From: an uncultured Methanosarcinales archaeon
Lineage (GTDB): Archaea; Nanobdellota; Nanobdellia; Woesearchaeales; JACPIF01
NCBI GenBank assembly: GCA_964602245.1
Contig: CAZRPY010000006.1
Location: 77-64,076 of the forward strand
DNA length: 64,000 bases
Direction: 5' to 3'
Part shown: positions 3,009 to 60,266 of the stretch, piece after piece
How the letters are laid out: each line of letters starts with the position of its first letter
Numbering within the stretch: the stretch's first letter is position 1
Position numbers and translations under genes: made by a program
Notes under the pieces: generated by a model
The model's input: only the letters and a program-made list of their open reading frames with translations
Database searches by the model: none
What the model was told of the DNA's origin: nothing

Positions 3009-3224
3009 ATGGTACTGAGGCATATTAGGAGAGGCTTGGTTAAAGCAGCAGCTGTTGGCATAGTAGCAGCTAGAAAGGTTAAACATGCTGTAATTGGAAA
3101 GAAGGGCAGCAAGAAAAGAGCTAAAGTCAAGAAGGTGGCAAAGGCAGCAGCTAAAATGGTTGCAAAGAAAGTGGCAGCCAAGGGAAAGAAGTTAGCTAAG
3201 AGGGTTGCAAGAAAGTTAAGGTAA
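3009..3224 (+). CDS. Extremely basic Lys/Ala-rich small protein (71 aa); putative nucleic-acid-binding
   Basis: GAGGTG SD upstream. By hand count 27 of 71 residues are K/R and none are D/E. Low-complexity AKK repeats. Confidence 0.55.
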   Translation: MVLRHIRRGLVKAAAVGIVAARKVKHAVIGKKGSKKRAKVKKVAKAAAKMVAKKVAAKGKKLAKRVARKLR

Positions 3225-5660
3225 TTTTTCTTCTAAATACTTCCTTAGTCCAGCAGGTCTGGAAAAGGCAAATACATGCTTAATACCTAATTGCTGTGAA
3301 AACATTAATACTGCTTCTATAAGCTGAGTTCCTACTGAACTATTTTCTGAAAATAAAATCCTGGCATTGTTTATTTCCGGATAAGCAAAAAGTATGCTAT
3401 AACCTAGCGCATCTTTATCCTTATTTCTTCCACCTTTAATTACTGATATAAGCTTTGCCCCTTTTTTAAGCCCTCCCTTAGGTTTTTTATGGAATCGCAC
3501 AATTGGATCTATGTTACTTTTGAGATAATCATCTAAATATTTATCTGCAAGTTTTTTCAATAGAATGTTATTCACTTTCTTTTTCCTTGACTTATGATTA
3601 TCAGATTTATTTTCTTTGCGTAATGTTGAGATAGCTACACAGACAAGTGCCTTGCCATCTGGATTATTTGTAGAGAGAGTGCCTTTATCTGTTAGTCTAT
3701 CCCATTTTGTTTTTTTTAGAGCTTCAATATTGTTTGCTCTTAATGCACTTACAGTGCCTAGAAGATTGTTGTTAAAGTTCAAAGCACCTATTAGAAAGCC
3801 GTTCTTGCTTCTTATTCTGAATTCTTTTTCTGTTGATGTTAAAGGATACCATCTCTTATTGTTAATTTCTACTGCTTTTTTAATTACTTCTCTCTCATAA
3901 GGGAATATTTGCCTGAATATAAATGAATGATTTTTAGCGATAACCCCCTTAATCTCCTTAATATTGCCTAAACTTGTTAATTTTGGAAACATTTCTTTAA
4001 TCTTTGTTCTCTGTACTTTTCCTGTTGATGTCATAGGCAATTCGCTAGAAGAAATTTCAACAACCTTTCTTGGGCTTTCATATATGCTTAAGTTTTTTAT
4101 CTTTGTGTTTTTCCAGTTATTTGTTATGCTCTTAATAATCTCTTTTCTCTTTTCTTTACTCACATTATCCTTAAAGACAATTACTGCACCAATCTCTTCT
4201 CCAAATCTTTTGTCTTCATAACCTATAACATATACCTGATCAATTTCATGATAAGCTCTTTTTAATGCAAGTTCAACTGCCAATGGAGAAATATTAATGC
4301 CACCTTTTATAATTATCTCCTTTATTCTACCAGTGAGAAAAAAGAATTTTTCACTATTAATTATTTTATAATATCCTAGATCACCTGAATGAAACCAACC
4401 AAATTTAAAAGATTTTTTTGTTTCCTCTAGCTCTTTAATATACTCTTTCATGATTCCTGGGCCTCTAATGCATATCTCACCAATTTCATTCTCCCTTGCT
4501 TCTTTTCCATCTTTTAGTGTAGTTACATTGGTCCATTTCATCTCTGTTCCAATAGTATTGCTCCTTAGAAGCTCAAAGTATTTTGAATTTAGAATTTCAT
4601 TTTCCTTTACTTTATATGGCATGCCTGTAGATCTGAGTGAGGTTTCTGTCTGGCCATAGCCCTGAATAAGAGGGATTTGGAATTTTCTTACAAATTCTTC
4701 TGCTTCAAGTGGTTGTACAGGAGCTGAGCCAATTTGAATTCTGCTGACCTTTAGCTTATGCCTTATTTTATTGAATATTTCTTCTTGAGATAACTGATCA
4801 TGGCATATAGTTGGAACTATTGAAGTAATAGTTGCTTCTGTCTCAGCCAGGGTTGGGAAAAATCCAGAATTTGAGTAGCCTGGAGTAAGAATTATTGTTC
4901 CTCCTTTTAGAAGTGTTGCGAGAACAAAGGTTGTAGAATTTATGTGATGTAAAGGCAAAATGGTCATGAATCTTTCATTTTCCTTAATATTAAGCCAGTC
5001 TGCAATACTGTCAGCATTTGATATAAGGCTTTCAACTCTTAACAAAGCCCCTCTTGGGAAAGCAGTAGTTCCAGAGGTATAAAGTATCAATGCATCATTT
5101 TTAATAGGACTGTTTAAATAAATTGGAGTTTCTTTTTCTATAAGTTTAACGAAATCTTTTAAGCTACTGAATTTTATAACTTTTATTTTTGAGTTAGCTC
5201 TAACGTTCTTAATTACTCTATTAAGCTCTGCTTCTGCATTCTCGTCAGTTGTATCAGTCTTTATGAATAGTGCCTTACTTTTAGTTTGCTTAATTTTATA
5301 GAGTATGGATTCTAAAGAGTCTCTTTTTGAGTCTAAAGGCACAGTGATTATTGAAGAAGACCAAGAGGCTAAATTTAAGAAAAGTATCTCAGGTGAATTC
5401 TTCATTAAAAAAACAATTCTCTCATTCTTTCTCATATTAAGTTTTTTTATTAAATAAGAAGATGTTTTTCCAACAATTTCTTTTAACTGTTTATATGAAA
5501 AGATTGTTTTCTTGTTATCTTCTAAATATACTAGTGCCTCCTTGTCTGGAAACTTTTTGGCATAGAAATCTAACAAATACGATACTGATTTAAATGGGGA
5601 TGTAAATTTAACTAATTGTCTGTTCTTAATTAAACTATATTGAGTTAATTGTGTCAACAT
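3216..5660 (-). CDS. AMP-dependent synthetase/ligase (ANL superfamily) fused to a ~245-aa uncharacterised C-terminal domain (possibly acyltransferase-like)
   Basis: ANL core motifs are present: YTSGTTAFPRG, GYGQTET, SGDLG, GRIKEIIIKGGINISP, TSTGKVQR. They are followed by a long extra domain ending ...QLIEAVLMFSQQLGIKHVFAFSRPAGL. Confidence 0.8.
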   Translation of the reverse strand: MLTQLTQYSLIKNRQLVKFTSPFKSVSYLLDFYAKKFPDKEALVYLEDNKKTIFSYKQLKEIVGKTSSYLIKKLNMRKNERIVFLMKNSPEILFLNLASWSSSIITVPLDSKRDSLESILYKIKQTKSKALFIKTDTTDENAEAELNRVIKNVRANSKIKVIKFSSLKDFVKLIEKETPIYLNSPIKNDALILYTSGTTAFPRGALLRVESLISNADSIADWLNIKENERFMTILPLHHINSTTFVLATLLKGGTIILTPGYSNSGFFPTLAETEATITSIVPTICHDQLSQEEIFNKIRHKLKVSRIQIGSAPVQPLEAEEFVRKFQIPLIQGYGQTETSLRSTGMPYKVKENEILNSKYFELLRSNTIGTEMKWTNVTTLKDGKEARENEIGEICIRGPGIMKEYIKELEETKKSFKFGWFHSGDLGYYKIINSEKFFFLTGRIKEIIIKGGINISPLAVELALKRAYHEIDQVYVIGYEDKRFGEEIGAVIVFKDNVSKEKRKEIIKSITNNWKNTKIKNLSIYESPRKVVEISSSELPMTSTGKVQRTKIKEMFPKLTSLGNIKEIKGVIAKNHSFIFRQIFPYEREVIKKAVEINNKRWYPLTSTEKEFRIRSKNGFLIGALNFNNNLLGTVSALRANNIEALKKTKWDRLTDKGTLSTNNPDGKALVCVAISTLRKENKSDNHKSRKKKVNNILLKKLADKYLDDYLKSNIDPIVRFHKKPKGGLKKGAKLISVIKGGRNKDKDALGYSILFAYPEINNARILFSENSSVGTQLIEAVLMFSQQLGIKHVFAFSRPAGLRKYLEEKLP

Positions 5661-7831: not shown

Positions 7832-8557
7832 TTAGCCAGCAATCCCCCATTTCTCTATTTTAATCTGGCTAATTCCAGCGCCCATTTCCCTAAGCAATTT
7901 AATCATGTCATCTATCATCTTATCTGGACCACAGACAAAGAATAAAGTATTGTTAAAATCTTCTATATTGGCATCTATCATCTCTCTGTCAATCCTGCCT
8001 TTATGGCCATTCCAATTATCGTTATCTTGTAGCCTAGTCATTGTAAGAGTGATTTTTACATTTCCATTCTTATTGAGATTTTCAAGTTCTTCTTTGTAAA
8101 TTACGTATTCAGGAGACCTTACACTGTAGAGAAGCTTAATCTTATTTGGCAATCCTTTATTTATTATATATCTTATCATGCTCATTATTGGAGCTAAGCC
8201 AGTACCTCCAGCTATCATTACCAAATCTTGCTTATAGTCCTCTTTAAATACAAAATGTCCAATCGGGCCTCTAATCTTAACTTTATCTCCTACCTGCAGC
8301 TTTGTCATTCTTGTTGAGAAAGGGCCTTCTCTCTTAACAGTAACTTCTATCCAGCCTTGGGATTCTGGTGAAGATGAAATAGAGAAAAATTTAGTTCTGT
8401 TGCTTTCCTCACCATCAATAAAGCCAAACATTATATACTGCCCTGGTATAAAGGTTATACTTTCATGCTCAGGAAGCTGTATCCTTAAGGTTACAGTATC
8501 TGGACTTTCAACTATTACCTTGCTAATTGTGCATATAACCCAGTCTTTAGGATTCAT
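7832..8557 (-). CDS. Ferredoxin-NADP reductase-like FAD/NAD(P)-binding oxidoreductase
   Basis: FFSISSSP (RxYS-type FAD motif) and GGTGLAP (NAD motif). Two-domain size of 241 aa. Confidence 0.75.
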   Translation of the reverse strand: MNPKDWVICTISKVIVESPDTVTLRIQLPEHESITFIPGQYIMFGFIDGEESNRTKFFSISSSPESQGWIEVTVKREGPFSTRMTKLQVGDKVKIRGPIGHFVFKEDYKQDLVMIAGGTGLAPIMSMIRYIINKGLPNKIKLLYSVRSPEYVIYKEELENLNKNGNVKITLTMTRLQDNDNWNGHKGRIDREMIDANIEDFNNTLFFVCGPDKMIDDMIKLLREMGAGISQIKIEKWGIAG

Positions 8558-8647
8558 CTTCTTTTTCGATTAGAGAACTATATTTAAGTTTTATGAATTC
8601 TTTGCCAATTAATAACTTTTAAATAGACTTGATAAATCCTTTGGGAT

Positions 8648-20796: not shown

Positions 20797-20902
20797 ACTT
20801 GCATTAACGACGCTTGCTATGCAAGCTGTGCGAGAGGTCCGCTTCGGTGATGGAACTTGAATGAAGCGGACAGGTAGACAAAATAAACCAAAAGTGCAAG
20901 TA
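20797..20902 (+). ncRNA. GC-rich structured element, family copy D (minimal three-helix form); structured sRNA or MITE-like element
   Basis: Closing helix acttgca / tgcaagt. P2 gcttgc-tat-gcaagc. P3 gtccgcttc (20837-45) / gaagcggac (20863-71). Conserved acaggtagac. Homologous to 41162-41315 and the other copies. Confidence 0.55.
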
Positions 20903-23695: not shown

Positions 23696-25246
23696 ATGAA
23701 AGAAAGTAAACCCAAAGATGCCAGCAAACAGACTATTTCAATAGAAGAGATGGCAGCTTTCTGCAAAAGAAAAGGTTTAGTATATCCAAGCTCTGAGATT
23801 TATGGGAGCTTAGCAGGGTTTTTTGATTTTGGGCCTTTGGGAGTTGAATTAAAGAATAATATTAAGCAGCACTGGTGGAAAACTTTTGTGCAGGCAAGAG
23901 ATGATATCGTTGGAATAGATGGCTCAATAATAGCTCATCCTTTGGTTTGGAAGGCTTCAGGGCATGTTGATAGCTTTGCAGATGTTCTTGTTGATTGTAA
24001 TAAATGTAATTCAAGGCATAGAGCAGACCATCTTATTGAGGATAAGCTTAAGATTAATACTACTGGATTGGCTTTAGAAGATTTAGAAAAAATCCTGAAA
24101 GAGCATAAGGTGAAATGCCCTAAATGCGGATCAGTTTTAGGAGAGCTTAGAACTTTTAATTTAATGTTTACAACTAATATTGGTCCAGTTGAGGTAGAGA
24201 GTGCAAAATCTTATTTAAGGCCAGAGACAGCACAATTGATTTTTACAGATTTTAGATTGGTACATGAAAATTCTAGGTTGAAATTACCTTTTGGGATTGC
24301 GCAGATAGGCAAAGCATTTAGAAATGAAATCTCTCCAAGAGATTTCTTGTTCAGGATGAGAGAGTTTGAGCAGATGGAGATAGAATATTTTATTCATCCT
24401 GATAAAATAGATGAATGTCTTTTTATTGATGAAGTAATAGAGCATGAAATTCAAATATTATCAGAAGAGATGCAAAAACATAATAAAGAGCACCAAAAAA
24501 TGAAAATAAAGAATGCTTTAGATAAGAAAATAATTAAAACAAAATGGCATGCTTACTGGCTGACAAAATCGCATAAATGGTTTATAGCATTAGGAGCAAA
24601 GCCAGATAATTTTAGGATAAGACAGCACATTGCTACAGAGTTAAGCCATTATGCACTAGAAACATGGGACCTTGAATATAGATTTCCATTTGGATGGAAA
24701 GAGTTGCAAGGACTAGCTAACAGGACAGATTTTGATTTGCAGCAGCATATGAAAGTTTCTGGAAAAGATCTTTCATTATTTGATGAGGAAACAAAAAGAA
24801 AGATAGTGCCTTATGTAATTTGTGAGCCTAGTTTAGGAGTAGAAAGGGCTTTTCTTGTGTTTTTATTTGATGCTTATAATTATGATTCAGAAAGAGAAAA
24901 TGTTGTATTAGAATTAAGTCCAGAGCTTGCGCCTTATAAGATTGCTGTCTTCCCTCTTCTGTCAAATAAAGATGAATTAGTTGCTAAAGCAAAAGAAGTC
25001 CATGATAACTTAAAGATATATTTTGCATCATTCTACGATGATAGTGGCTCGATTGGCCGTAGGTATAGTAGACAAGATGAGATTTCAACGCCTTACTGTA
25101 TTACTGTTGATTTTGAAACTTTGACAGATGATAGTGTTACAGTTAGAGACAGAGATACAACTGAACAGCATCGAGTTAAGATAAAAGATTTGAAGAACAT
25201 TATAGGAAAGTTATTGAGCAAAGAAATGCATTTTTCTGATATCTAG
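23696..25246 (+). CDS. glyS: Glycine--tRNA ligase (archaeal/eukaryal alpha2 type)
   Basis: YPSSEIYGSLAGFFDFGPLGVELKNNI, RPETAQ, GLANRTDFDL, GVERAF and the anticodon-binding tail. Confidence 0.92.
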   Translation: MKESKPKDASKQTISIEEMAAFCKRKGLVYPSSEIYGSLAGFFDFGPLGVELKNNIKQHWWKTFVQARDDIVGIDGSIIAHPLVWKASGHVDSFADVLVDCNKCNSRHRADHLIEDKLKINTTGLALEDLEKILKEHKVKCPKCGSVLGELRTFNLMFTTNIGPVEVESAKSYLRPETAQLIFTDFRLVHENSRLKLPFGIAQIGKAFRNEISPRDFLFRMREFEQMEIEYFIHPDKIDECLFIDEVIEHEIQILSEEMQKHNKEHQKMKIKNALDKKIIKTKWHAYWLTKSHKWFIALGAKPDNFRIRQHIATELSHYALETWDLEYRFPFGWKELQGLANRTDFDLQQHMKVSGKDLSLFDEETKRKIVPYVICEPSLGVERAFLVFLFDAYNYDSERENVVLELSPELAPYKIAVFPLLSNKDELVAKAKEVHDNLKIYFASFYDDSGSIGRRYSRQDEISTPYCITVDFETLTDDSVTVRDRDTTEQHRVKIKDLKNIIGKLLSKEMHFSDI

Positions 25247-26884: not shown

Positions 26885-26958
26885 TGGGGTTGCCCGGATT
26901 TGAACCGGGATCACAAGGCCCCGAACCTTGGATAATAGCCAAGTTATACCACAACCCC
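26885..26958 (-). tRNA. tRNA-Pro (anticodon CGG), no encoded CCA
   Basis: Reverse complement reads GGGGUUG-UG-...-CAAGG-UUCGGGG-CCUUG-UGAU-CCCGG-UUCAAAU-CCGGG-CAACCCC-A. 7-bp acceptor, canonical T-loop, U33, G37. The D-stem is weak and AU-rich. Confidence 0.85.
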
Positions 26959-27044
26959 AAGCAATAATAGAAAATTTAAGCTGATTATTTAAGTTTTGTT
27001 AACTTATTATAAGAATTACATTTAGTACAAATTTTATCTCTTAT

Positions 27045-27240
27045 TTGCACTTTCTTCACAATTGCTATACCTATAGGAAGCCCTGCTTCCTAAATGTCTC
27101 GGAACAAAGGAAATCTCGATTTCCTAGTCTCGAAAATCGTATATTTTCGAAACATAGTTCCTCAACTAGTCCGCTTCATTTATGTTTCTTTGATGATTAG
27201 CGGACCTTGGCAAGGCACGCAGTTCGTGCCCGTAGTGCAA
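27045..27240 (-). ncRNA. GC-rich structured element, family copy C (longest, with an internally duplicated module)
   Basis: Minus strand reads ttgcactacgggcacgaactgcgtgcc...gtccgct...agcggac...gttgaggaac...ttcgagactaggaaatcgagatttcct...gttccgagacatttaggaagcagggcttcctataggta...agtgcaa. Confidence 0.55.
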
Positions 27241-27271: not shown

Positions 27272-28273
27272 TTATTGTTGAGATTTTTCATATTGTGCTA
27301 TAACTTTATCTGCAACTTCTTTTGCATCGTTAGAAGAAATAGCAAATCCTAGGCTTTCAAAGCCGCCTATCTTAAAATTGTTTATGCCAATTATTTCTTT
27401 CTTAATATTGACTAAAGGCCCTCCTGAGTTTCCCGGATTTATTGGAACATCTGTTTGGATATAAGTTGCTCCGTTAGTAGCCAATCTTTTAGCACTAACT
27501 ATGCCTTCTGTAACTGTGAATGATAAACCTGCGGGATTTCCTAGAGCAATTACTTTCTGGCCAATACTAACTTGATCTGAATTACCAAATTCCATGCTTT
27601 TGAAAGTGCCTTGAACTTTTAGTATTGCAATATCTTTATTAGCATCATAGCCAATTAATACGGCATCTAGATTTCTTCCATCATAAGTATTAACTTTCAC
27701 AGAAGATGCATCTGCTATTACATGCACATTAGTAATTATATAGCCTTTTGAACTGATTATTGCACCTGAGCCTTGTCCTAAATTAGTTTTTACACTAACA
27801 GTTGACTGCAAAACATCATTTACTATAGCTGTGAAATCAGAGCTGCTAACCCTGATTTCAGCTAACTCTTTCTTGAGATCATTAAGCTTTATGTCGCTTT
27901 GCTGCTCAATCTCATCAATTAATTTGCTTAATGTGTTTATCTCCTGTTTGCTCTGTTGCTTGAAAACTTTTAAATCAGAATCAATAAAGCCAATTTGTGA
28001 GCTTAAATTCTTTCCCAAGCCTTTAATATCAGCTGATAAACTTTCTCTTGTATCTTTAATAGAATTTAACAAAGCATTATTTAGCTCAGCAATTCTCGCA
28101 AGATAGTCCAGTCTTGTCTCTTCTAGCTTACTATTGTAATAAAAAAACAAACCTGCTAATACTAAAATAAATATAATATATGTAATTATTTCTCTTTTAT
28201 TGAATAATTTTCTTTTTGGATGTTCAGCAATTAATTCTTTTTTTAACATTTTTAATCTGAATTTTTTAAACAT
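27272..28273 (-). CDS. Membrane-anchored trypsin-like serine protease (HtrA/DegP S1C-like) with an N-terminal coiled coil and no PDZ domain
   Basis: Catalytic His (TNVHVIAD), Asp (DIAILKV) and Ser (GNSGGPL). N-terminal TM helix plus ~110 aa of heptad-rich sequence. The protein ends shortly after the protease domain. Confidence 0.8.
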   Translation of the reverse strand: MFKKFRLKMLKKELIAEHPKRKLFNKREIITYIIFILVLAGLFFYYNSKLEETRLDYLARIAELNNALLNSIKDTRESLSADIKGLGKNLSSQIGFIDSDLKVFKQQSKQEINTLSKLIDEIEQQSDIKLNDLKKELAEIRVSSSDFTAIVNDVLQSTVSVKTNLGQGSGAIISSKGYIITNVHVIADASSVKVNTYDGRNLDAVLIGYDANKDIAILKVQGTFKSMEFGNSDQVSIGQKVIALGNPAGLSFTVTEGIVSAKRLATNGATYIQTDVPINPGNSGGPLVNIKKEIIGINNFKIGGFESLGFAISSNDAKEVADKVIAQYEKSQQ

Positions 28274-39701: not shown

Positions 39702-41132
39702 ATGATGAACTTAAAAGAATATATTGCACAAGTTAAGTCAGGAAGCCTAGATATTATTGAGGAAACTCATAAGGCTATAGAAAATGCTAAGAAAATTAAT
39801 TCTATCTATAATTATTTTAATGTTATTTGTGAGGGGCATGCAATAACACAGGCAGAAAAACTAAAGGAGAAGATTAAACAGAAAAAGGCAAATGGAAAGC
39901 TACTAGGTGTTTTTATATCTGCTAAAGATAGCATATGTGTTAAAGATGTTGAGAGTACTGCTGGAAGCAAGATTCTTTCTGGCTATAAGCCCTTGTTTGA
40001 TGCACATGTCATTAAAAGAGTTAAGGAAGAGGATGGCATTATTATAGGAAAGACTAGCCAAGATGAGTTTGGATTTGGAAGCTTTAGCGTTAATATTGGC
40101 ATTGGCTATAAAGTTCCAAAGAATCCTTTTGATTTAGATAGAAGTTGTGGAGGCTCTTCAGGAGGGGCAGCAGGTATAGCTCAGAAAGCTAACTTTGCTC
40201 ATATTTCTTTAGGTGAAAGCACCGGTGGCAGTATTGCAGCTCCTGCATCTTTTTGCAGTGTTTTTGGATTATGCCCAACATATGGCAGAGTTTCTAGGTA
40301 TGGATTAATAGATTTTGGAAATTCTCTGGACAAGATTGGAGCTGTTGGAAAGAGTGTTTATGACACCAGATTATTGCAGTCTGTAATTTCTGGATATGAT
40401 GAAAGAGATAGCACTTCATTAAATGTTAATGAGGAAGATTATACTAAAATTATTGGAAAGAGTTTGAAAGGAATGAAGATAGGTATTATAAAAGAGGCTT
40501 TTGGTAATAATGATGAGGCTGTTGAGAAAAATGTTTATGATGCGATTGAAAAATTAAAAGAAAAAAAGATTGAGGTTGAACCAATTAGCCTAGAATTGCC
40601 GATAAAATATGGGTTAGCTGTTTACTATATTTTAGCAACTTCTGAGGCTTCAACTAATCTTGCAAAGTATTGTGGAATGAGATATGGCATGGCAGAGCAT
40701 TTAGAGGGTAATTTTAATGAATACTTTACTAAGGTAAGGAGCAATAATCTAGGTGATGAGGCAAAAAGGAGAATTATTTTAGGAACATTTGTTAGGATGT
40801 CTGGGTATAGAGATGCTTATTACATAAAAGCTGCAAAAGTAAGGACATTAATGATTCAGGAATATAAAAGGGCTTTTAAGAAATTTGATGCATTAGTTAG
40901 TCCTACTATGCCTATACTGCCGCCAAAGTTTTCTGATATAGCAAAATTAACACCATTGCAGAATTATATGATGGATGTATTATTGCTAGGACCTAATGTG
41001 GCTGGACTGCCACATATGAATGTTCCAGTTGGGTTTGAAGGAAAATTGCCTGTTGGCATGCTGCTAACATCAGATCATTTACAGGAAGGTAAGTTATTGC
41101 AGATTGCTAGCGTGTTTGATGAAAAACAATAA
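39702..41132 (+). CDS. gatA: Asp/Glu-tRNA amidotransferase subunit A (amidase signature)
   Basis: GGSSGGAA amidase signature, SKDSICVKD, GLPHMNVPVG. Confidence 0.92.
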   Translation: MMNLKEYIAQVKSGSLDIIEETHKAIENAKKINSIYNYFNVICEGHAITQAEKLKEKIKQKKANGKLLGVFISAKDSICVKDVESTAGSKILSGYKPLFDAHVIKRVKEEDGIIIGKTSQDEFGFGSFSVNIGIGYKVPKNPFDLDRSCGGSSGGAAGIAQKANFAHISLGESTGGSIAAPASFCSVFGLCPTYGRVSRYGLIDFGNSLDKIGAVGKSVYDTRLLQSVISGYDERDSTSLNVNEEDYTKIIGKSLKGMKIGIIKEAFGNNDEAVEKNVYDAIEKLKEKKIEVEPISLELPIKYGLAVYYILATSEASTNLAKYCGMRYGMAEHLEGNFNEYFTKVRSNNLGDEAKRRIILGTFVRMSGYRDAYYIKAAKVRTLMIQEYKRAFKKFDALVSPTMPILPPKFSDIAKLTPLQNYMMDVLLLGPNVAGLPHMNVPVGFEGKLPVGMLLTSDHLQEGKLLQIASVFDEKQ

Positions 41133-41161
41133 GTAGAATAAAAATAATAGAATAAAAAAAA

Positions 41162-41315
41162 ATTTGCACTATGAGCACGAACTGCGTGCTATATAAGGGT
41201 CCGCTTATCAGTGATGTAACTTCCCATGTAGCGGACATGTTGAAGGAACAATGTTCCGAGACATTAGGAAGCCGCAGCTTCCTACAGGTAGACCCAGTGC
41301 TCACAAATTGCAAAT
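41162..41315 (+). ncRNA. GC-rich structured element, family copy A (five-helix form)
   Basis: Closing helix atttgca/tgcaaat. Hairpins gcacg/cgtgc, gtccgct/agcggac, ggaac/gttcc, ggaagc/gcttcc. Conserved gagac and acaggta. About 46% G+C by hand count in an AT-rich background. Confidence 0.6.
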
Positions 41316-41341
41316 AAAATAAATTGATAATTAAAATAAAA

Positions 41342-42766
41342 ATGAGTAAACAACATTTTATAACTGATATTGTGATAGGTTTAGAGGTGCACGTAGAGCT
41401 AGACTGCAATACTAAATTGTTCTGCAGTTGCCCTACTAAAGGAAGTGAAGAGCCTAATACAAGAACATGTGAAGTATGCTTAGGGATGCCTGGAAGCAAG
41501 CCAGTGTTGAATGAAAGAGCAGTAGAGTATGCAGTTAAGCTTTGTATGGCAACTCATTGTGAGATTTCTCCAATATTAGTTTTCTCAAGAAAATCTTATT
41601 TCTATCCAGATATGGCTAAGAACTATCAGATAAGCCAGTATGAAATACCATTAGGAAAAAATGGGAAAATAGTGCTTAGCAATGGCAAAGAAATTTGGTT
41701 AATAAGGATACATATTGAAGAAGATCCTGCTTCTTTAGTGCATCCTGCTGGAATGAGGGAATCTGGATATGTTCTAGTGGATTATAATAGGAGTGGCAAT
41801 CCATTGGTAGAGATAGTTACAGAGCCTGATATTGCAAGTGCAGATGAAGCTAGAGATTTTATGAAAAAGTTAGTCAGCATACTAAATTATTTAGAAATAT
41901 TTGATTTAAATAAATGTGTTATTAAGGCAGATGCAAATGTTTCTATTAAGGAATCTGGTTATACTAGAGTTGAGATTAAGAATATAACTGGCTTTAAGGA
42001 GATTGAAAGGGCTATTGAATATGAAATAAAAAGGCAGAAAAAAGAGGTTAGTGAAGGAAATAAAATACATCAGGAAACTAGAGCATGGGATTCTGACAAA
42101 GGTGTTACACATTCCCTTAGGAAAAAAGAGGCTGAAGAGGATTATGGATATATCATTGAGCCAGATTTAGTTGTTACAAATATAAGTAATGAGTATCTTG
42201 ATAAAATAAAAGAAAGTTTGCCTGAGCTTGCTGAACAGAAGATTAAAAAGTTTTTAGAGAAGCATGGTATAAAGAAAGAAGATGCAGAGATACTTGCGGC
42301 TGAGAAAGAATTGGCAGAACTATATGAGAAAGTTGCAGAAGATATTAATCCTGAGCTTGCTGCTAAATGGCTAAGAAGGGAGTTAATGAGAGTAGTGCAT
42401 TATAGTGATAAAACACTAAAAGAAATTAAGATTGACGAGAAAAATCTTATTGCACTGCTTGAGTTAATTGAAAAGAAAAGGATTACAGATAAAGTTGGAC
42501 AAAGGCTAATGGAGATGTTAATAGCTAAGCCATTTGATGTTAAAGAATATGTGAAGAAAGAGAAATTAGAAGCACTTGCAGATGTTTCTGAGCTTGAGGA
42601 TATATGTAGGCAAGCTATTGAGGAAAATCCTAAAGCAGTTAAGGATTATAAGGCAGGAAGACTAGAAGCATTAAACTTTATTGTTGGAGCTGTGATGAAA
42701 AAGACTAAAGGCAAGGCAACACCTAAAGAGGTGAATGATATATTAAAAAGACTAATTGGCTTATAA
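41342..42766 (+). CDS. gatB: Asp/Glu-tRNA amidotransferase subunit B
   Basis: IGLEVHVEL, CEVCLGMPGSKPVLN, DYNRSGNPLVEIVTEPD. Start set at MSKQHF. Confidence 0.92.
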   Translation: MSKQHFITDIVIGLEVHVELDCNTKLFCSCPTKGSEEPNTRTCEVCLGMPGSKPVLNERAVEYAVKLCMATHCEISPILVFSRKSYFYPDMAKNYQISQYEIPLGKNGKIVLSNGKEIWLIRIHIEEDPASLVHPAGMRESGYVLVDYNRSGNPLVEIVTEPDIASADEARDFMKKLVSILNYLEIFDLNKCVIKADANVSIKESGYTRVEIKNITGFKEIERAIEYEIKRQKKEVSEGNKIHQETRAWDSDKGVTHSLRKKEAEEDYGYIIEPDLVVTNISNEYLDKIKESLPELAEQKIKKFLEKHGIKKEDAEILAAEKELAELYEKVAEDINPELAAKWLRRELMRVVHYSDKTLKEIKIDEKNLIALLELIEKKRITDKVGQRLMEMLIAKPFDVKEYVKKEKLEALADVSELEDICRQAIEENPKAVKDYKAGRLEALNFIVGAVMKKTKGKATPKEVNDILKRLIGL

Positions 42767-46003: not shown

Positions 46004-46100
46004 CGTCTTATTTTCATATTCTTTGACGAACTAGTTTATAAATGTTGCGGAAAATAAGACGAATTCCGAGACTAGGAATCAAGTTCCTATGTTGAGGAAA
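46004..46100 (+). repeat. Fragment related to the structured-element family (copy F): 12-bp hairpin plus a ccgagac-taggaa/ttccta-tgttgaggaa module
   Basis: cgtcttattttc (46004-15) pairs with gaaaataagacg (46050-61). attccgagactaggaatcaagttcctatgttgaggaa matches the inner module of copy C. Confidence 0.4.
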
Positions 46101-49883: not shown

Positions 49884-50076
49884 TAATTTGCATAACGAGG
49901 CACGAGTTAGCAAGTACAGAACTGCGGTTCTGTAAGTACCTGCGTGCCTTTACCATAAGTCCGCTTATCCATGATGTATTGTGTGGTAGCGGACAGGTTG
50001 AGGAACTGCGTTCCGAGACCTCCGGAAACCATAGGTTTCCGACAGGTACTACAATAAGTCACAAAGTTGCAAGTTA
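49884..50076 (+). ncRNA. GC-rich structured element, family copy B (P2 carries an extra nested hairpin)
   Basis: taatttgca/tgcaagtta closing helix. aggcacg...cgtgcct with an inner acagaac/gttctgt hairpin. gtccgct (49959-65) / agcggac (49988-94). gttgaggaac-tgc-gttccgagac. cggaaacc/ggtttccg. acaggta. Confidence 0.6.
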
Positions 50077-60129: not shown

Positions 60130-60266
60130 CTTGCACTACGACGCCAACTTCGTTGGCTGTGCCATTAGTCCGCAACCGTTGTGCCAATTATAAGATATAA
60201 AAATTATAGGGGGATTACAAATTAAGTGATTAAAATAATAGCACTAAAATAAACAAATTTGCAAAT
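60130..60266 (+). ncRNA. Structured-element family copy E (5' half and 3' tail conserved, central P3 degenerate)
   Basis: cttgcactacgacgccaacttcgttggctgtgccattagtccgc parallels copy D. The 3' tail actaaaataaacaaatttgcaaat parallels D's acaaaataaaccaaaagtgcaagt. No gcggac partner is present. Confidence 0.4.

Follow-up and report, generated by a model that had tools for sequence, protein, structure and literature searches.

Copy C is a 196-nt element (27045-27240, minus strand) in a 64,000-nt stretch of contig CAZRPY010000006.1; we call this whole stretch the window. Copy C lies between a gene for a serine protease and the gene for tRNA-Pro. We think that it is a composite member of a previously undescribed, lineage-restricted family of mosaic, non-autonomous mobile elements that resemble MITEs (miniature inverted-repeat transposable elements) and bacterial interspersed mosaic elements (BIMEs), and we give this explanation a probability of about 60%. 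Part of the evidence comes from the same locus in relatives (we label the related contigs and loci that we compared as L001, L002, and so on). In L031, whose protease is 77% identical, the protease and tRNA-Pro genes are 35 nt apart and there is no element. L030, whose protease is 85% identical, has a mini core only, with GCGGAC followed directly by AGGCAC and no cassette. In the window, the core contains a cassette (alpha) that in turn contains another (beta), which completes a series from an empty site to a mini core to a core with nested cassettes.

We propose that the family is built on a core of about 105 nt, enriched in GC, which would fold as a three-way junction in which P1 closes the structure, P2 is variable, and P3 (GUCCGC/GCGGAC) is conserved. 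Cassettes of about 42-50 nt, each with two hairpins arranged as stem-CGAGAC-stem, would insert into the core at defined places: alpha between P3 and AGGUA, and beta either in hairpin loops or by itself in intergenic DNA. Copy C would then be a core plus alpha, with beta nested in the first hairpin of alpha. We infer that the family spreads at the DNA level, with a transposase acting in trans and staggered-cut insertion as for MITEs, and that copies are co-transcribed with the upstream gene. The fold would have its effect at the RNA level, and its likeliest role is that of a barrier at 3' ends or between cistrons or of a protein-binding structure, by analogy with bacterial repetitive extragenic palindromic (REP) sequences and BIMEs. 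The AT-rich 3' arm may also supply a promoter-like motif to the downstream gene.

The family in the window and the structure of copy C

The window has a GC content of 33.6%. Its open reading frames include OapB/OapC, Nop5, fibrillarin, several aminoacyl-tRNA synthetases, and GatA/GatB, and the named homologues of its GatB and its protease are labelled as Candidatus Woesearchaeota or Nanoarchaeota (56-72% identity). Because of this gene content and these homologues, we take the host to be a DPANN archaeon (Woesearchaeota) with an AT-rich genome.

We searched for the family with BLAST and with a covariance model (R1), and we sought cassettes with regular-expression scans. The window contains five copies and one solo cassette. 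Copy A (41163-41315, plus strand; R1 score 134.6 bits) is a full copy, that is, core plus alpha, and lies between gatA and gatB. Copy B (49887-50074, plus strand), between oapB and oapC, is also full and has a 33-nt hairpin insert in its P2 loop (49907-49939). Copy C (R1 score 105.5 bits, E = 2e-24) is the most elaborate family member in the window. Copy D (20797-20901, plus strand; 23.8 bits, E = 0.003) is a mini copy: P1, P2, and P3 are present, AGGUAGAC comes directly after GCGGAC, and there is no GAGAC cassette. Copy E (60130-60173, plus strand) is a 5' relic that retains only the 5' strand of P1, P2 (GCCAAC/GUUGGC), and the 5' strand of P3. The solo cassette (46042-46097, plus strand) is of the beta type, is antisense to the neighboring genes, and has a direct repeat, ATGTTGCG...ATGTTGAG, on its flanks; an earlier note on this DNA had suggested a pattern search for the GAGAC module on its own, and this is where it was found. 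The copies have 42-47% GC, compared with 33.6% for the window. The pattern CGAGAC-N1-5-GGAA..TTCC occurs five times in the window when 0.00 occurrences are expected, and a 27-nt block of copy C matches copy A at 41164-41190 (two matches, none expected). The earlier note had put the identity of copies C and A at about 80%; they are indeed related, with a slightly lower figure (BLAST gives 75% in an alignment of 96 nt and 78% in one of 63 nt).

On the minus strand, copy C reads exactly as was quoted earlier. P1 pairs UUGCAC (27235-27240) with GUGCAA (27045-27050) and closes the element, and it may also be taken for a terminal inverted repeat. P2 is the hairpin GGCACG-AACUG-CGUGCC (27214-27230), and P3 is GUCCGCU...AGCGGAC (27169-27205), with a stem sequence that is nearly invariant across the family. 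The alpha cassette (27073-27168, including beta) is inserted between the GCGGAC of the core and AGGUA, and consists of P4a, a tandem G.A/A.G, P4b (GGAAC/GUUCC), GAGAC, and P5 (AGGAAGC/GCUUCCU). After P3, the order is thus GUUGA-GGAAC ... GUUCC-GAGAC and then P5, and the outer part of P4 (P4a) is reduced to two or three pairs. The beta cassette (27104-27152) occupies the P4b loop and reads UUUCGAAAAU..AUUUUCGA-GAC-UAGGAAAUC..GAUUUCCU, with CTATGT and CTTTGT as its flanks.

As a 196-nt RNA, copy C has a minimum free energy of -70.1 kcal/mol, compared with -43.3 +/- 4.7 kcal/mol for 200 shuffled sequences (z = -5.7), and a fold that is constrained to the family consensus reaches -69.4 kcal/mol, which is within 0.7 kcal/mol of the minimum. 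The pair probabilities are 0.9-1.0 for five of the six pairs of P1 (0.42 for the outermost) and 0.99-1.0 for P4b and P5. The earlier note had placed a stem-GAGAC-stem unit inside P4, in the loop of GGAAC/GTTCC, and both the sequence and the pair probabilities bear this out. It had also singled out the folding of this nested module as decisive, and the module does fold, with probabilities of 0.78-1.0 save for one pair: 0.93-1.0 in the first nested hairpin and, in the second, 0.78-1.0 for all but one of its eight listed pairs, the exception being a pair that a 2-nt loop makes impossible. Copy D has a minimum free energy of -36.5 kcal/mol (z = -3.9), and the fold z-scores range from -3.9 to -5.7.

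A scan of the whole window against Rfam 15 (whose families include ribozymes, riboswitches, sRNAs, SRP, 5S, RNase P, C/D, and H/ACA RNAs) at gathering thresholds gave no hits, and local scans of copies C, A, and D at E <= 10 gave only chance matches (8-21 bits, well short of the cut-offs) besides the tRNA itself. These negatives should be read with caution, because the full-window scan missed a tRNA that is above the cut-off: it scores 51 bits in a 1.2-kb scan (cut-off 29), so it was lost to a filter effect. An origin from 5S RNA, SRP-Alu, or tRNA can be set aside, as no such model matched and ARAGORN found only tRNA-Pro.

Probable layered insertion at orthologous loci

The insertion steps show up when loci are compared. 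At the protease/tRNA-Pro locus, a single AATAATTA in L031 corresponds to AATAATAA...AATAATCA on either side of the copy C unit. At the copy A locus, gatA and gatB overlap by 4 nt in L022, L023, and L028 and are 15-16 nt apart in L024; in the window, they are 209 nt apart (41132-41342) because copy A lies between them. For the solo cassette, the syntenic part of L022 has an empty site, ATGTTGCGaaaatc: the tttataaATGTTGCGaaaatc of L022 corresponds to ATGTTGCG, 39 nt, and ATGTTGAGgaaat in the window, with an 8-nt direct repeat. There are, then, empty sites for copy C (L031), copy A (L022 and L024), and the solo cassette (L022).

The alpha cassette can also be present or absent. Mini copies without alpha include copy D and L016, and the ortholog of copy B in L032 is a mini copy in which GGCGGAC is followed by ATGGATTC. 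In the window, GACAGGT, a direct repeat of 7 nt without a mismatch, flanks the alpha of copy B. The direct repeats at insertions are 7-8 nt long (GACAGGT, ATGTTGNG, and AATAATNA), and those of whole units lie in AT-rich, low-complexity DNA.

The earlier note viewed the inner module of copy C as a nested duplication of the module around it, and here we disagree. Beta is 77% identical to the solo cassette and 75% identical to a cassette in the P3 loop of L014, versus 63% for the alpha that hosts it. Because beta is closer to the solo cassette than to its host, sequence similarity indicates that it belongs to a separate subfamily of cassettes and was inserted, not duplicated locally. The position of beta-type cassettes also differs: in copy C, it is P4b, and in L014 and L008, it is P3, while the related copy in L006 is uninterrupted.

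In the A/T-rich 3' arm of copy A, AAATAAAATAAAT resembles a TATA box and precedes the ATG of gatB by about 18-30 nt. Judging from this run, gatB may have its own transcription start, derived from the 3' arm of copy A.

Arrays and distribution

Copies of the family interrupt one another in L006, L007, L009, L010, L021, and L032. For example, a full copy can lie within the P3 loop of a mini copy, whose P1 (CUUGUAUAC/GUAUAUAAG) is fully compensated, and there are stacked 3' ends that read ..GTTGCAAAG. The oapB-oapC locus is occupied by a full copy in the window, by an array of 593 nt in L032, and by a relic of 18 nt in L034. Similarly, at the locus of the type II secretion genes T2SS-E/F, there is a relic (copy E) in the window and a composite element at the orthologous position in L004. 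Loci that are common to several lineages and differ in their contents are the mosaic pattern that is seen in bacterial BIMEs.

The 3' part of some copies contains a further module, made up of CUAGUUAAUG, the hairpin GUAUC-RCA-GAUAC, and GGUAGUAAUUAGUC (L010 4460-4540; L021, minus strand, about 3190-3250; L007; and L032 2750-2830). This module apparently also stands alone upstream of arrays, in which case it would be another type of cassette.

In scans with exact patterns, true matches to the core were confined to AT-rich contigs from a single lineage (L002-L021). The pattern also matched L001, L005, and L013 (these false matches include two Planctomycetota), which we attribute to chance in GC-rich DNA. 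With the R1 model, 36 kb of sequence surrounding gatB in four other Woesearchaeota gave no family copy, and L022-L024 gave none either. Because the scans match a single lineage and R1 finds nothing in the four other Woesearchaeota, the family appears to be narrow and lineage-restricted within the sequence that was sampled. A viral or plasmid source is also not indicated: a pattern scan of IMG/VR gave one false positive and no real match. Another assembly that is titled "uncultured Methanosarcinales archaeon" (GCA_964491335.1, CAZBGH01; L002-L004 and L032) shares the element. Its GatB, OapC, and protease are Woesearchaeota-like, so it is probably mislabelled or mis-binned.

Is pairing selected?

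Compensatory change is likewise shown by comparison. When 16 copies are compared, 95.9% of cells are paired, and double changes occur in seven pairs, a level that none of 500 shuffles reached. P2 has at least eight different stem sequences, all of which pair, and four of the six pairs of P1 have changed on both sides. Orthologous copies give further cases. Between copy C and L030 (AGCGCG/CGCGCU), the 7-bp stem of P2 has two compensatory double changes and no others, within flanks that are about 80% identical. Between copy B and L032, the base of P2 changes from GGCACG/CGUGCC to GCCU/AGGC, again with compensation, while the 33-nt insert in its loop (49907-49939, plus strand; L032 2600-2632) is identical at 33 of 33 positions. 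The proteins of the window and L032 are 78-83% identical, and the P2 stem around the unchanged insert differs. The insert is also present in L007, with two differences. In P3, five of seven pairs are invariant in the 16 copies, and the innermost is U-A in eight copies versus C-G in six. As P3, P4b, and P5 hardly vary, it is sequence that is conserved and not structure alone. Two things point to one strand: a U.G pair is invariant, and in 9 of 11 copies the sense strand forms the better fold of the two.

Several considerations weigh against a mobile family. We found no transposase with matching ends in the window or in the related loci. P3, P4b, P5, and the 33-nt insert are far too conserved for decaying selfish DNA, and pairing is kept in situ at orthologous loci; such high conservation and in-situ pairing suit a host-selected RNA at least equally well. 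For whole units, the flanking direct repeats may be due to chance, with only the cassette repeats GACAGGT and ATGTTGNG being compositionally distinctive, and differences in presence and absence could arise by deletion or gene conversion instead of insertion. Also, the related sequence that was sampled amounts to only about 230 kb.

The main rival, then, is a family of structured non-coding RNAs that is selected by the host and is not primarily mobile. The RNAs would lie in 3' untranslated regions or between cistrons and would form a three-way junction that binds a protein or acts in trans. In this view, the cassettes expand the RNA by domains that have a function, and copies would occasionally be duplicated. 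Compensatory substitutions in orthologous copies, near-invariant junction and stem sequences (with the insert unchanged across genomes), loci that are conserved across lineages, a sense orientation at 12 of 13 independent loci, and the persistence of the elements in a streamlined DPANN genome are all as this rival would have it. It does not account so well for the decay of copies to relics (copy E and the 18-nt remnant in L034), for copies that interrupt one another in arrays, for the direct repeats around insertions in operons, or for the absence of the family from the other Woesearchaeota loci sampled (36 kb), and there is neither a conserved promoter at about -26 before P1 nor a T-rich terminator after the element. 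We consider this rival unlikely, and we still take it seriously because of the strong sequence conservation and the in-situ compensation. Put more specifically, and only tentatively, the family might be a new class of DPANN RNA: a sense-strand three-way junction that grows by accreting CGAGAC cassettes and is kept by compensatory evolution. The cassettes could then be protein-binding or catalytic modules that relocate between loops.

We see little chance that the elements are small self-cleaving ribozymes or riboswitches that act on operon transcripts. They are multi-copy, in sense orientation, and between cistrons, and in favor of this reading one could also cite conserved junctions (ACGA, UGUGC, AGGUAGAC, and CGAGAC) next to peripheral stems that vary and tolerate insertions in their loops. 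However, no Rfam model matches even at E <= 10, the flanking genes have no common function, and the GAGAC module is dispensable, since mini and full forms coexist. We also rejected some other readings of the sequence. C/D-box, H/ACA, or K-turn RNAs require a box order that is not provided by the GUGAUG of the P3 loop and P4's tandem G.A; P4 is a continuous helix with a tandem G.A and no 3-nt bulge, and beta has Watson-Crick pairs at the same positions. By inspection, a bulge-helix-bulge intron (two 3-nt bulges on either side of a 4-bp helix, which would bring the insertion boundaries together) does not fit, as in the predicted folds the cassette ends lie in separate hairpins and P1 is an unbroken helix of 6-9 bp that has no bulges. 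Origin-recognition boxes were suggested by copy B's position between oapB and oapC; the polarity of the dyad is wrong (GGAA..TTCC), and the loci of the other copies have no relation to this one.

Orientation, neighboring genes, and transposases

Of 14 elements, 13 are co-oriented with the upstream gene, or 12 of 13 if only independent loci are counted (one-sided binomial p ~0.002). Within tandem gene pairs, 9 of 10 elements are in the sense orientation. The orientation of the elements flips along with gene direction at 20.8, 27, and 41 kb, so a bias in replication strand does not fit. Several copies start just 15-33 nt after stop codons. For example, copy C follows the trypsin-like (HtrA-like) serine protease gene (27272-28273, minus strand; Pfam Trypsin_2, E = 2e-30). 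The earlier note was correct that the element begins 3' of the protease's stop codon (27272-27274), and the gap is 31 nt rather than 32. The genes next to the copies are all housekeeping genes. We also considered an independent promoter for the element and rejected it: the TATA-like runs at -14 to -2 abut P1, and the start would fall inside P2.

Neither a transposase nor a reverse transcriptase was found among the open reading frames of the window or next to copies in 10 related loci, each of which covers part of its genome. L030 does encode a 152-aa Y1 transposase (3128-3586, minus strand; PF01797) in an IS200-like element that has no counterpart in the syntenic part of the window; two hairpins on the same strand, CCACCAGTC-TGT-GACTGGTGG and CCCCCAGTC-TGT-GACTGGGGG, flank it.

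Even so, one can imagine single-stranded DNA hairpin elements that are moved by an HUH/Y1 transposase, with TGTTG as the target or cleavage motif, much like REPs with their REP-associated tyrosine transposases (RAYTs; PMC3733652) or the palindrome-associated transposable elements (PATEs) that derive from IS200/IS605. Each cassette consists of two similar hairpins in direct order, every cassette has a conserved 5' flank of (A)TGTTG/T, the structure is strand-specific (the invariant U.G pair), and the closest relative, L030, has a transposase gene. However, Y1 transposition leaves no target-site duplication, whereas the cassettes have direct repeats of 7-8 nt. Furthermore, the hairpins of the IS200-like element in L030 (CCAGTC-TGT-GACTGG) show no relation to the family and are missing from the window, the orientation of copies tracks gene direction at the three places given above and not the replication strand, and the hairpins lack a GTAG or CGTC head. 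We think that this explanation is improbable.

Comparison with known systems

Like REPs, BIMEs, and REPINs (paired REPs that form hairpins), the family consists of short GC-rich hairpin units that are arranged in mosaics and whose pairing is maintained. Like REPs and BIMEs, it is extragenic, is found just 3' of genes or between cistrons, and forms arrays at conserved loci that vary between strains; those elements probably share a transcript with the upstream gene, as may be the case here. However, this family is archaeal (DPANN), and its unit is a three-way junction of about 105 nt instead of a single palindrome of 20-40 nt. Its cassettes nest in loops instead of alternating head to tail, direct repeats flank the insertions, and TGTTGA or GAGAC precedes the hairpins, with no GTAG/CGTC tag. 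Also, we found no RAYT in the window or the related loci that is flanked by the family's hairpins, and the Y1 gene of L030 has hairpins that are typical of IS200.

Among MITEs, we considered the Correia elements (also known as NEMIS, or Neisseria miniature insertion sequences), the enterobacterial repetitive intergenic consensus (ERIC) elements or intergenic repeat units (IRUs), and the archaeal MITEs of Sulfolobus and the haloarchaea. These are also non-coding, about 100-200 bp, and intergenic (including within operons), with flanking direct repeats and terminal inverted repeats. The inverted repeat of this family is P1 (TTTGCA..TGCAAA, 6-10 bp), which is present at the ends of all complete copies. 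MITEs can be co-transcribed, fold as RNA, and have promoter-like ends, all of which may hold for this family as well. On the other hand, P1 varies in sequence with compensation, which is atypical of a repeat that is bound by a transposase, conservation is highest inside the element, in P3 and the cassettes, and we know of no parent insertion sequence. At about 45 nt and with repeats of their own, the cassettes are smaller than the MITEs known to us.

The PATEs of IS200/IS605 and the guide-RNA scaffolds of TnpB and IscB are also hairpin-rich, strand-specific, multi-copy, and non-autonomous. A PATE has subterminal hairpins and no target duplication and inserts 3' of a fixed tetra- or pentanucleotide; the two hairpins and the conserved 5' TGTTG of the cassettes would suit this, and their direct repeats of 7-8 nt would not. 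There is no TnpA, TnpB, or IscB gene beside any copy, the family has direct repeats, and its sequence is unrelated to the ends of the IS200-like element in L030.

Full-text literature searches on repeats and structured RNAs in DPANN archaea or Woesearchaeota turned up nothing comparable, and we know of no catalogued families of DPANN repeats or RNAs. DPANN genomes are small and tightly packed, and at about one copy per 13 kb, there could be dozens of these structured elements per genome. They split gene pairs that are otherwise translationally coupled, such as gatA/gatB, and their promoter-like ends may serve the genes that follow, tRNA-Pro among them. The stepwise series, which runs from an empty site through a mini core and a core with a cassette to a core with nested cassettes, is an unusually clear record of modular growth. 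If the family is selfish, then it is an archaeal counterpart of bacterial BIMEs and REPINs; if the fold is selected by the host, then it is a new class of archaeal RNA.

The tRNA-Pro gene downstream of copy C

The gene for tRNA-Pro (CGG) is at 26885-26958 on the minus strand (found by ARAGORN; 51.2 bits with the Rfam tRNA model), and its 5' end is at 26958 according to Rfam or 26959 according to ARAGORN. As the earlier note stated, copy C is upstream of it on the same strand, with a gap that we measure as 85-86 nt and not 87. Between the two is a motif, AACAAAACTTAAATAATCA (26982-27000, minus strand), that resembles a transcription factor B recognition element and TATA box (BRE/TATA), with the TATA part at -34 to -27 relative to tRNA-Pro. 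This motif (AACAAAACTTAAAT) is identical in L030 at 16 of 16 positions, within a spacer that is less conserved. The BRE/TATA-like motif is also found 26-33 nt before the ATG of other genes in the window, and L031 lacks it at tRNA-Pro. Because the motif is conserved (16/16) and precedes other genes, tRNA-Pro probably has its own promoter. And since L031 lacks the motif, this promoter was possibly delivered by, or formed at, the 3' arm of copy C.

The earlier note proposed that the element is part of the tRNA-Pro precursor and is processed from it. Besides the shared strand and the short distance, there is no run of more than four Ts between copy C and tRNA-Pro, so read-through from the protease gene into tRNA-Pro is conceivable. 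But ARAGORN identified only one tRNA in the window, and the other four copies of the family are not near tRNAs; the tRNA-Pro of L031 has no element; and the conserved promoter-like motif separates the element from the tRNA. We consider processing from the precursor to be extremely unlikely, and on this comparison, the adjacency of copy C to tRNA-Pro looks incidental and not like a property of the family.

The gene for prolyl-tRNA synthetase (23696-25246, plus strand) is 1.6 kb from tRNA-Pro (CGG), and the order of the prolyl-tRNA synthetase, a PIN-domain gene, and the protease is kept in L031. More broadly, the motif AAAA[AC]TT(T)AAATA occurs 26-33 nt before starts that lack a visible Shine-Dalgarno sequence (at 8591, 45586, and 26996 in the window, all on the minus strand), which suggests that these are BRE/TATA promoters and that the host has leaderless mRNAs. 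Finally, in some relatives, tRNA-Pro (CGG) is interrupted in the T loop, between GGTTCRAATC and CGGGC: the insertion is 22 nt in L030 (gene at about 2200-2296) and about 78 nt in L031 (about 8492-8646), and there is none in the window. ARAGORN missed both of the interrupted genes. These insertions are probably non-canonical archaeal introns that differ among close relatives.

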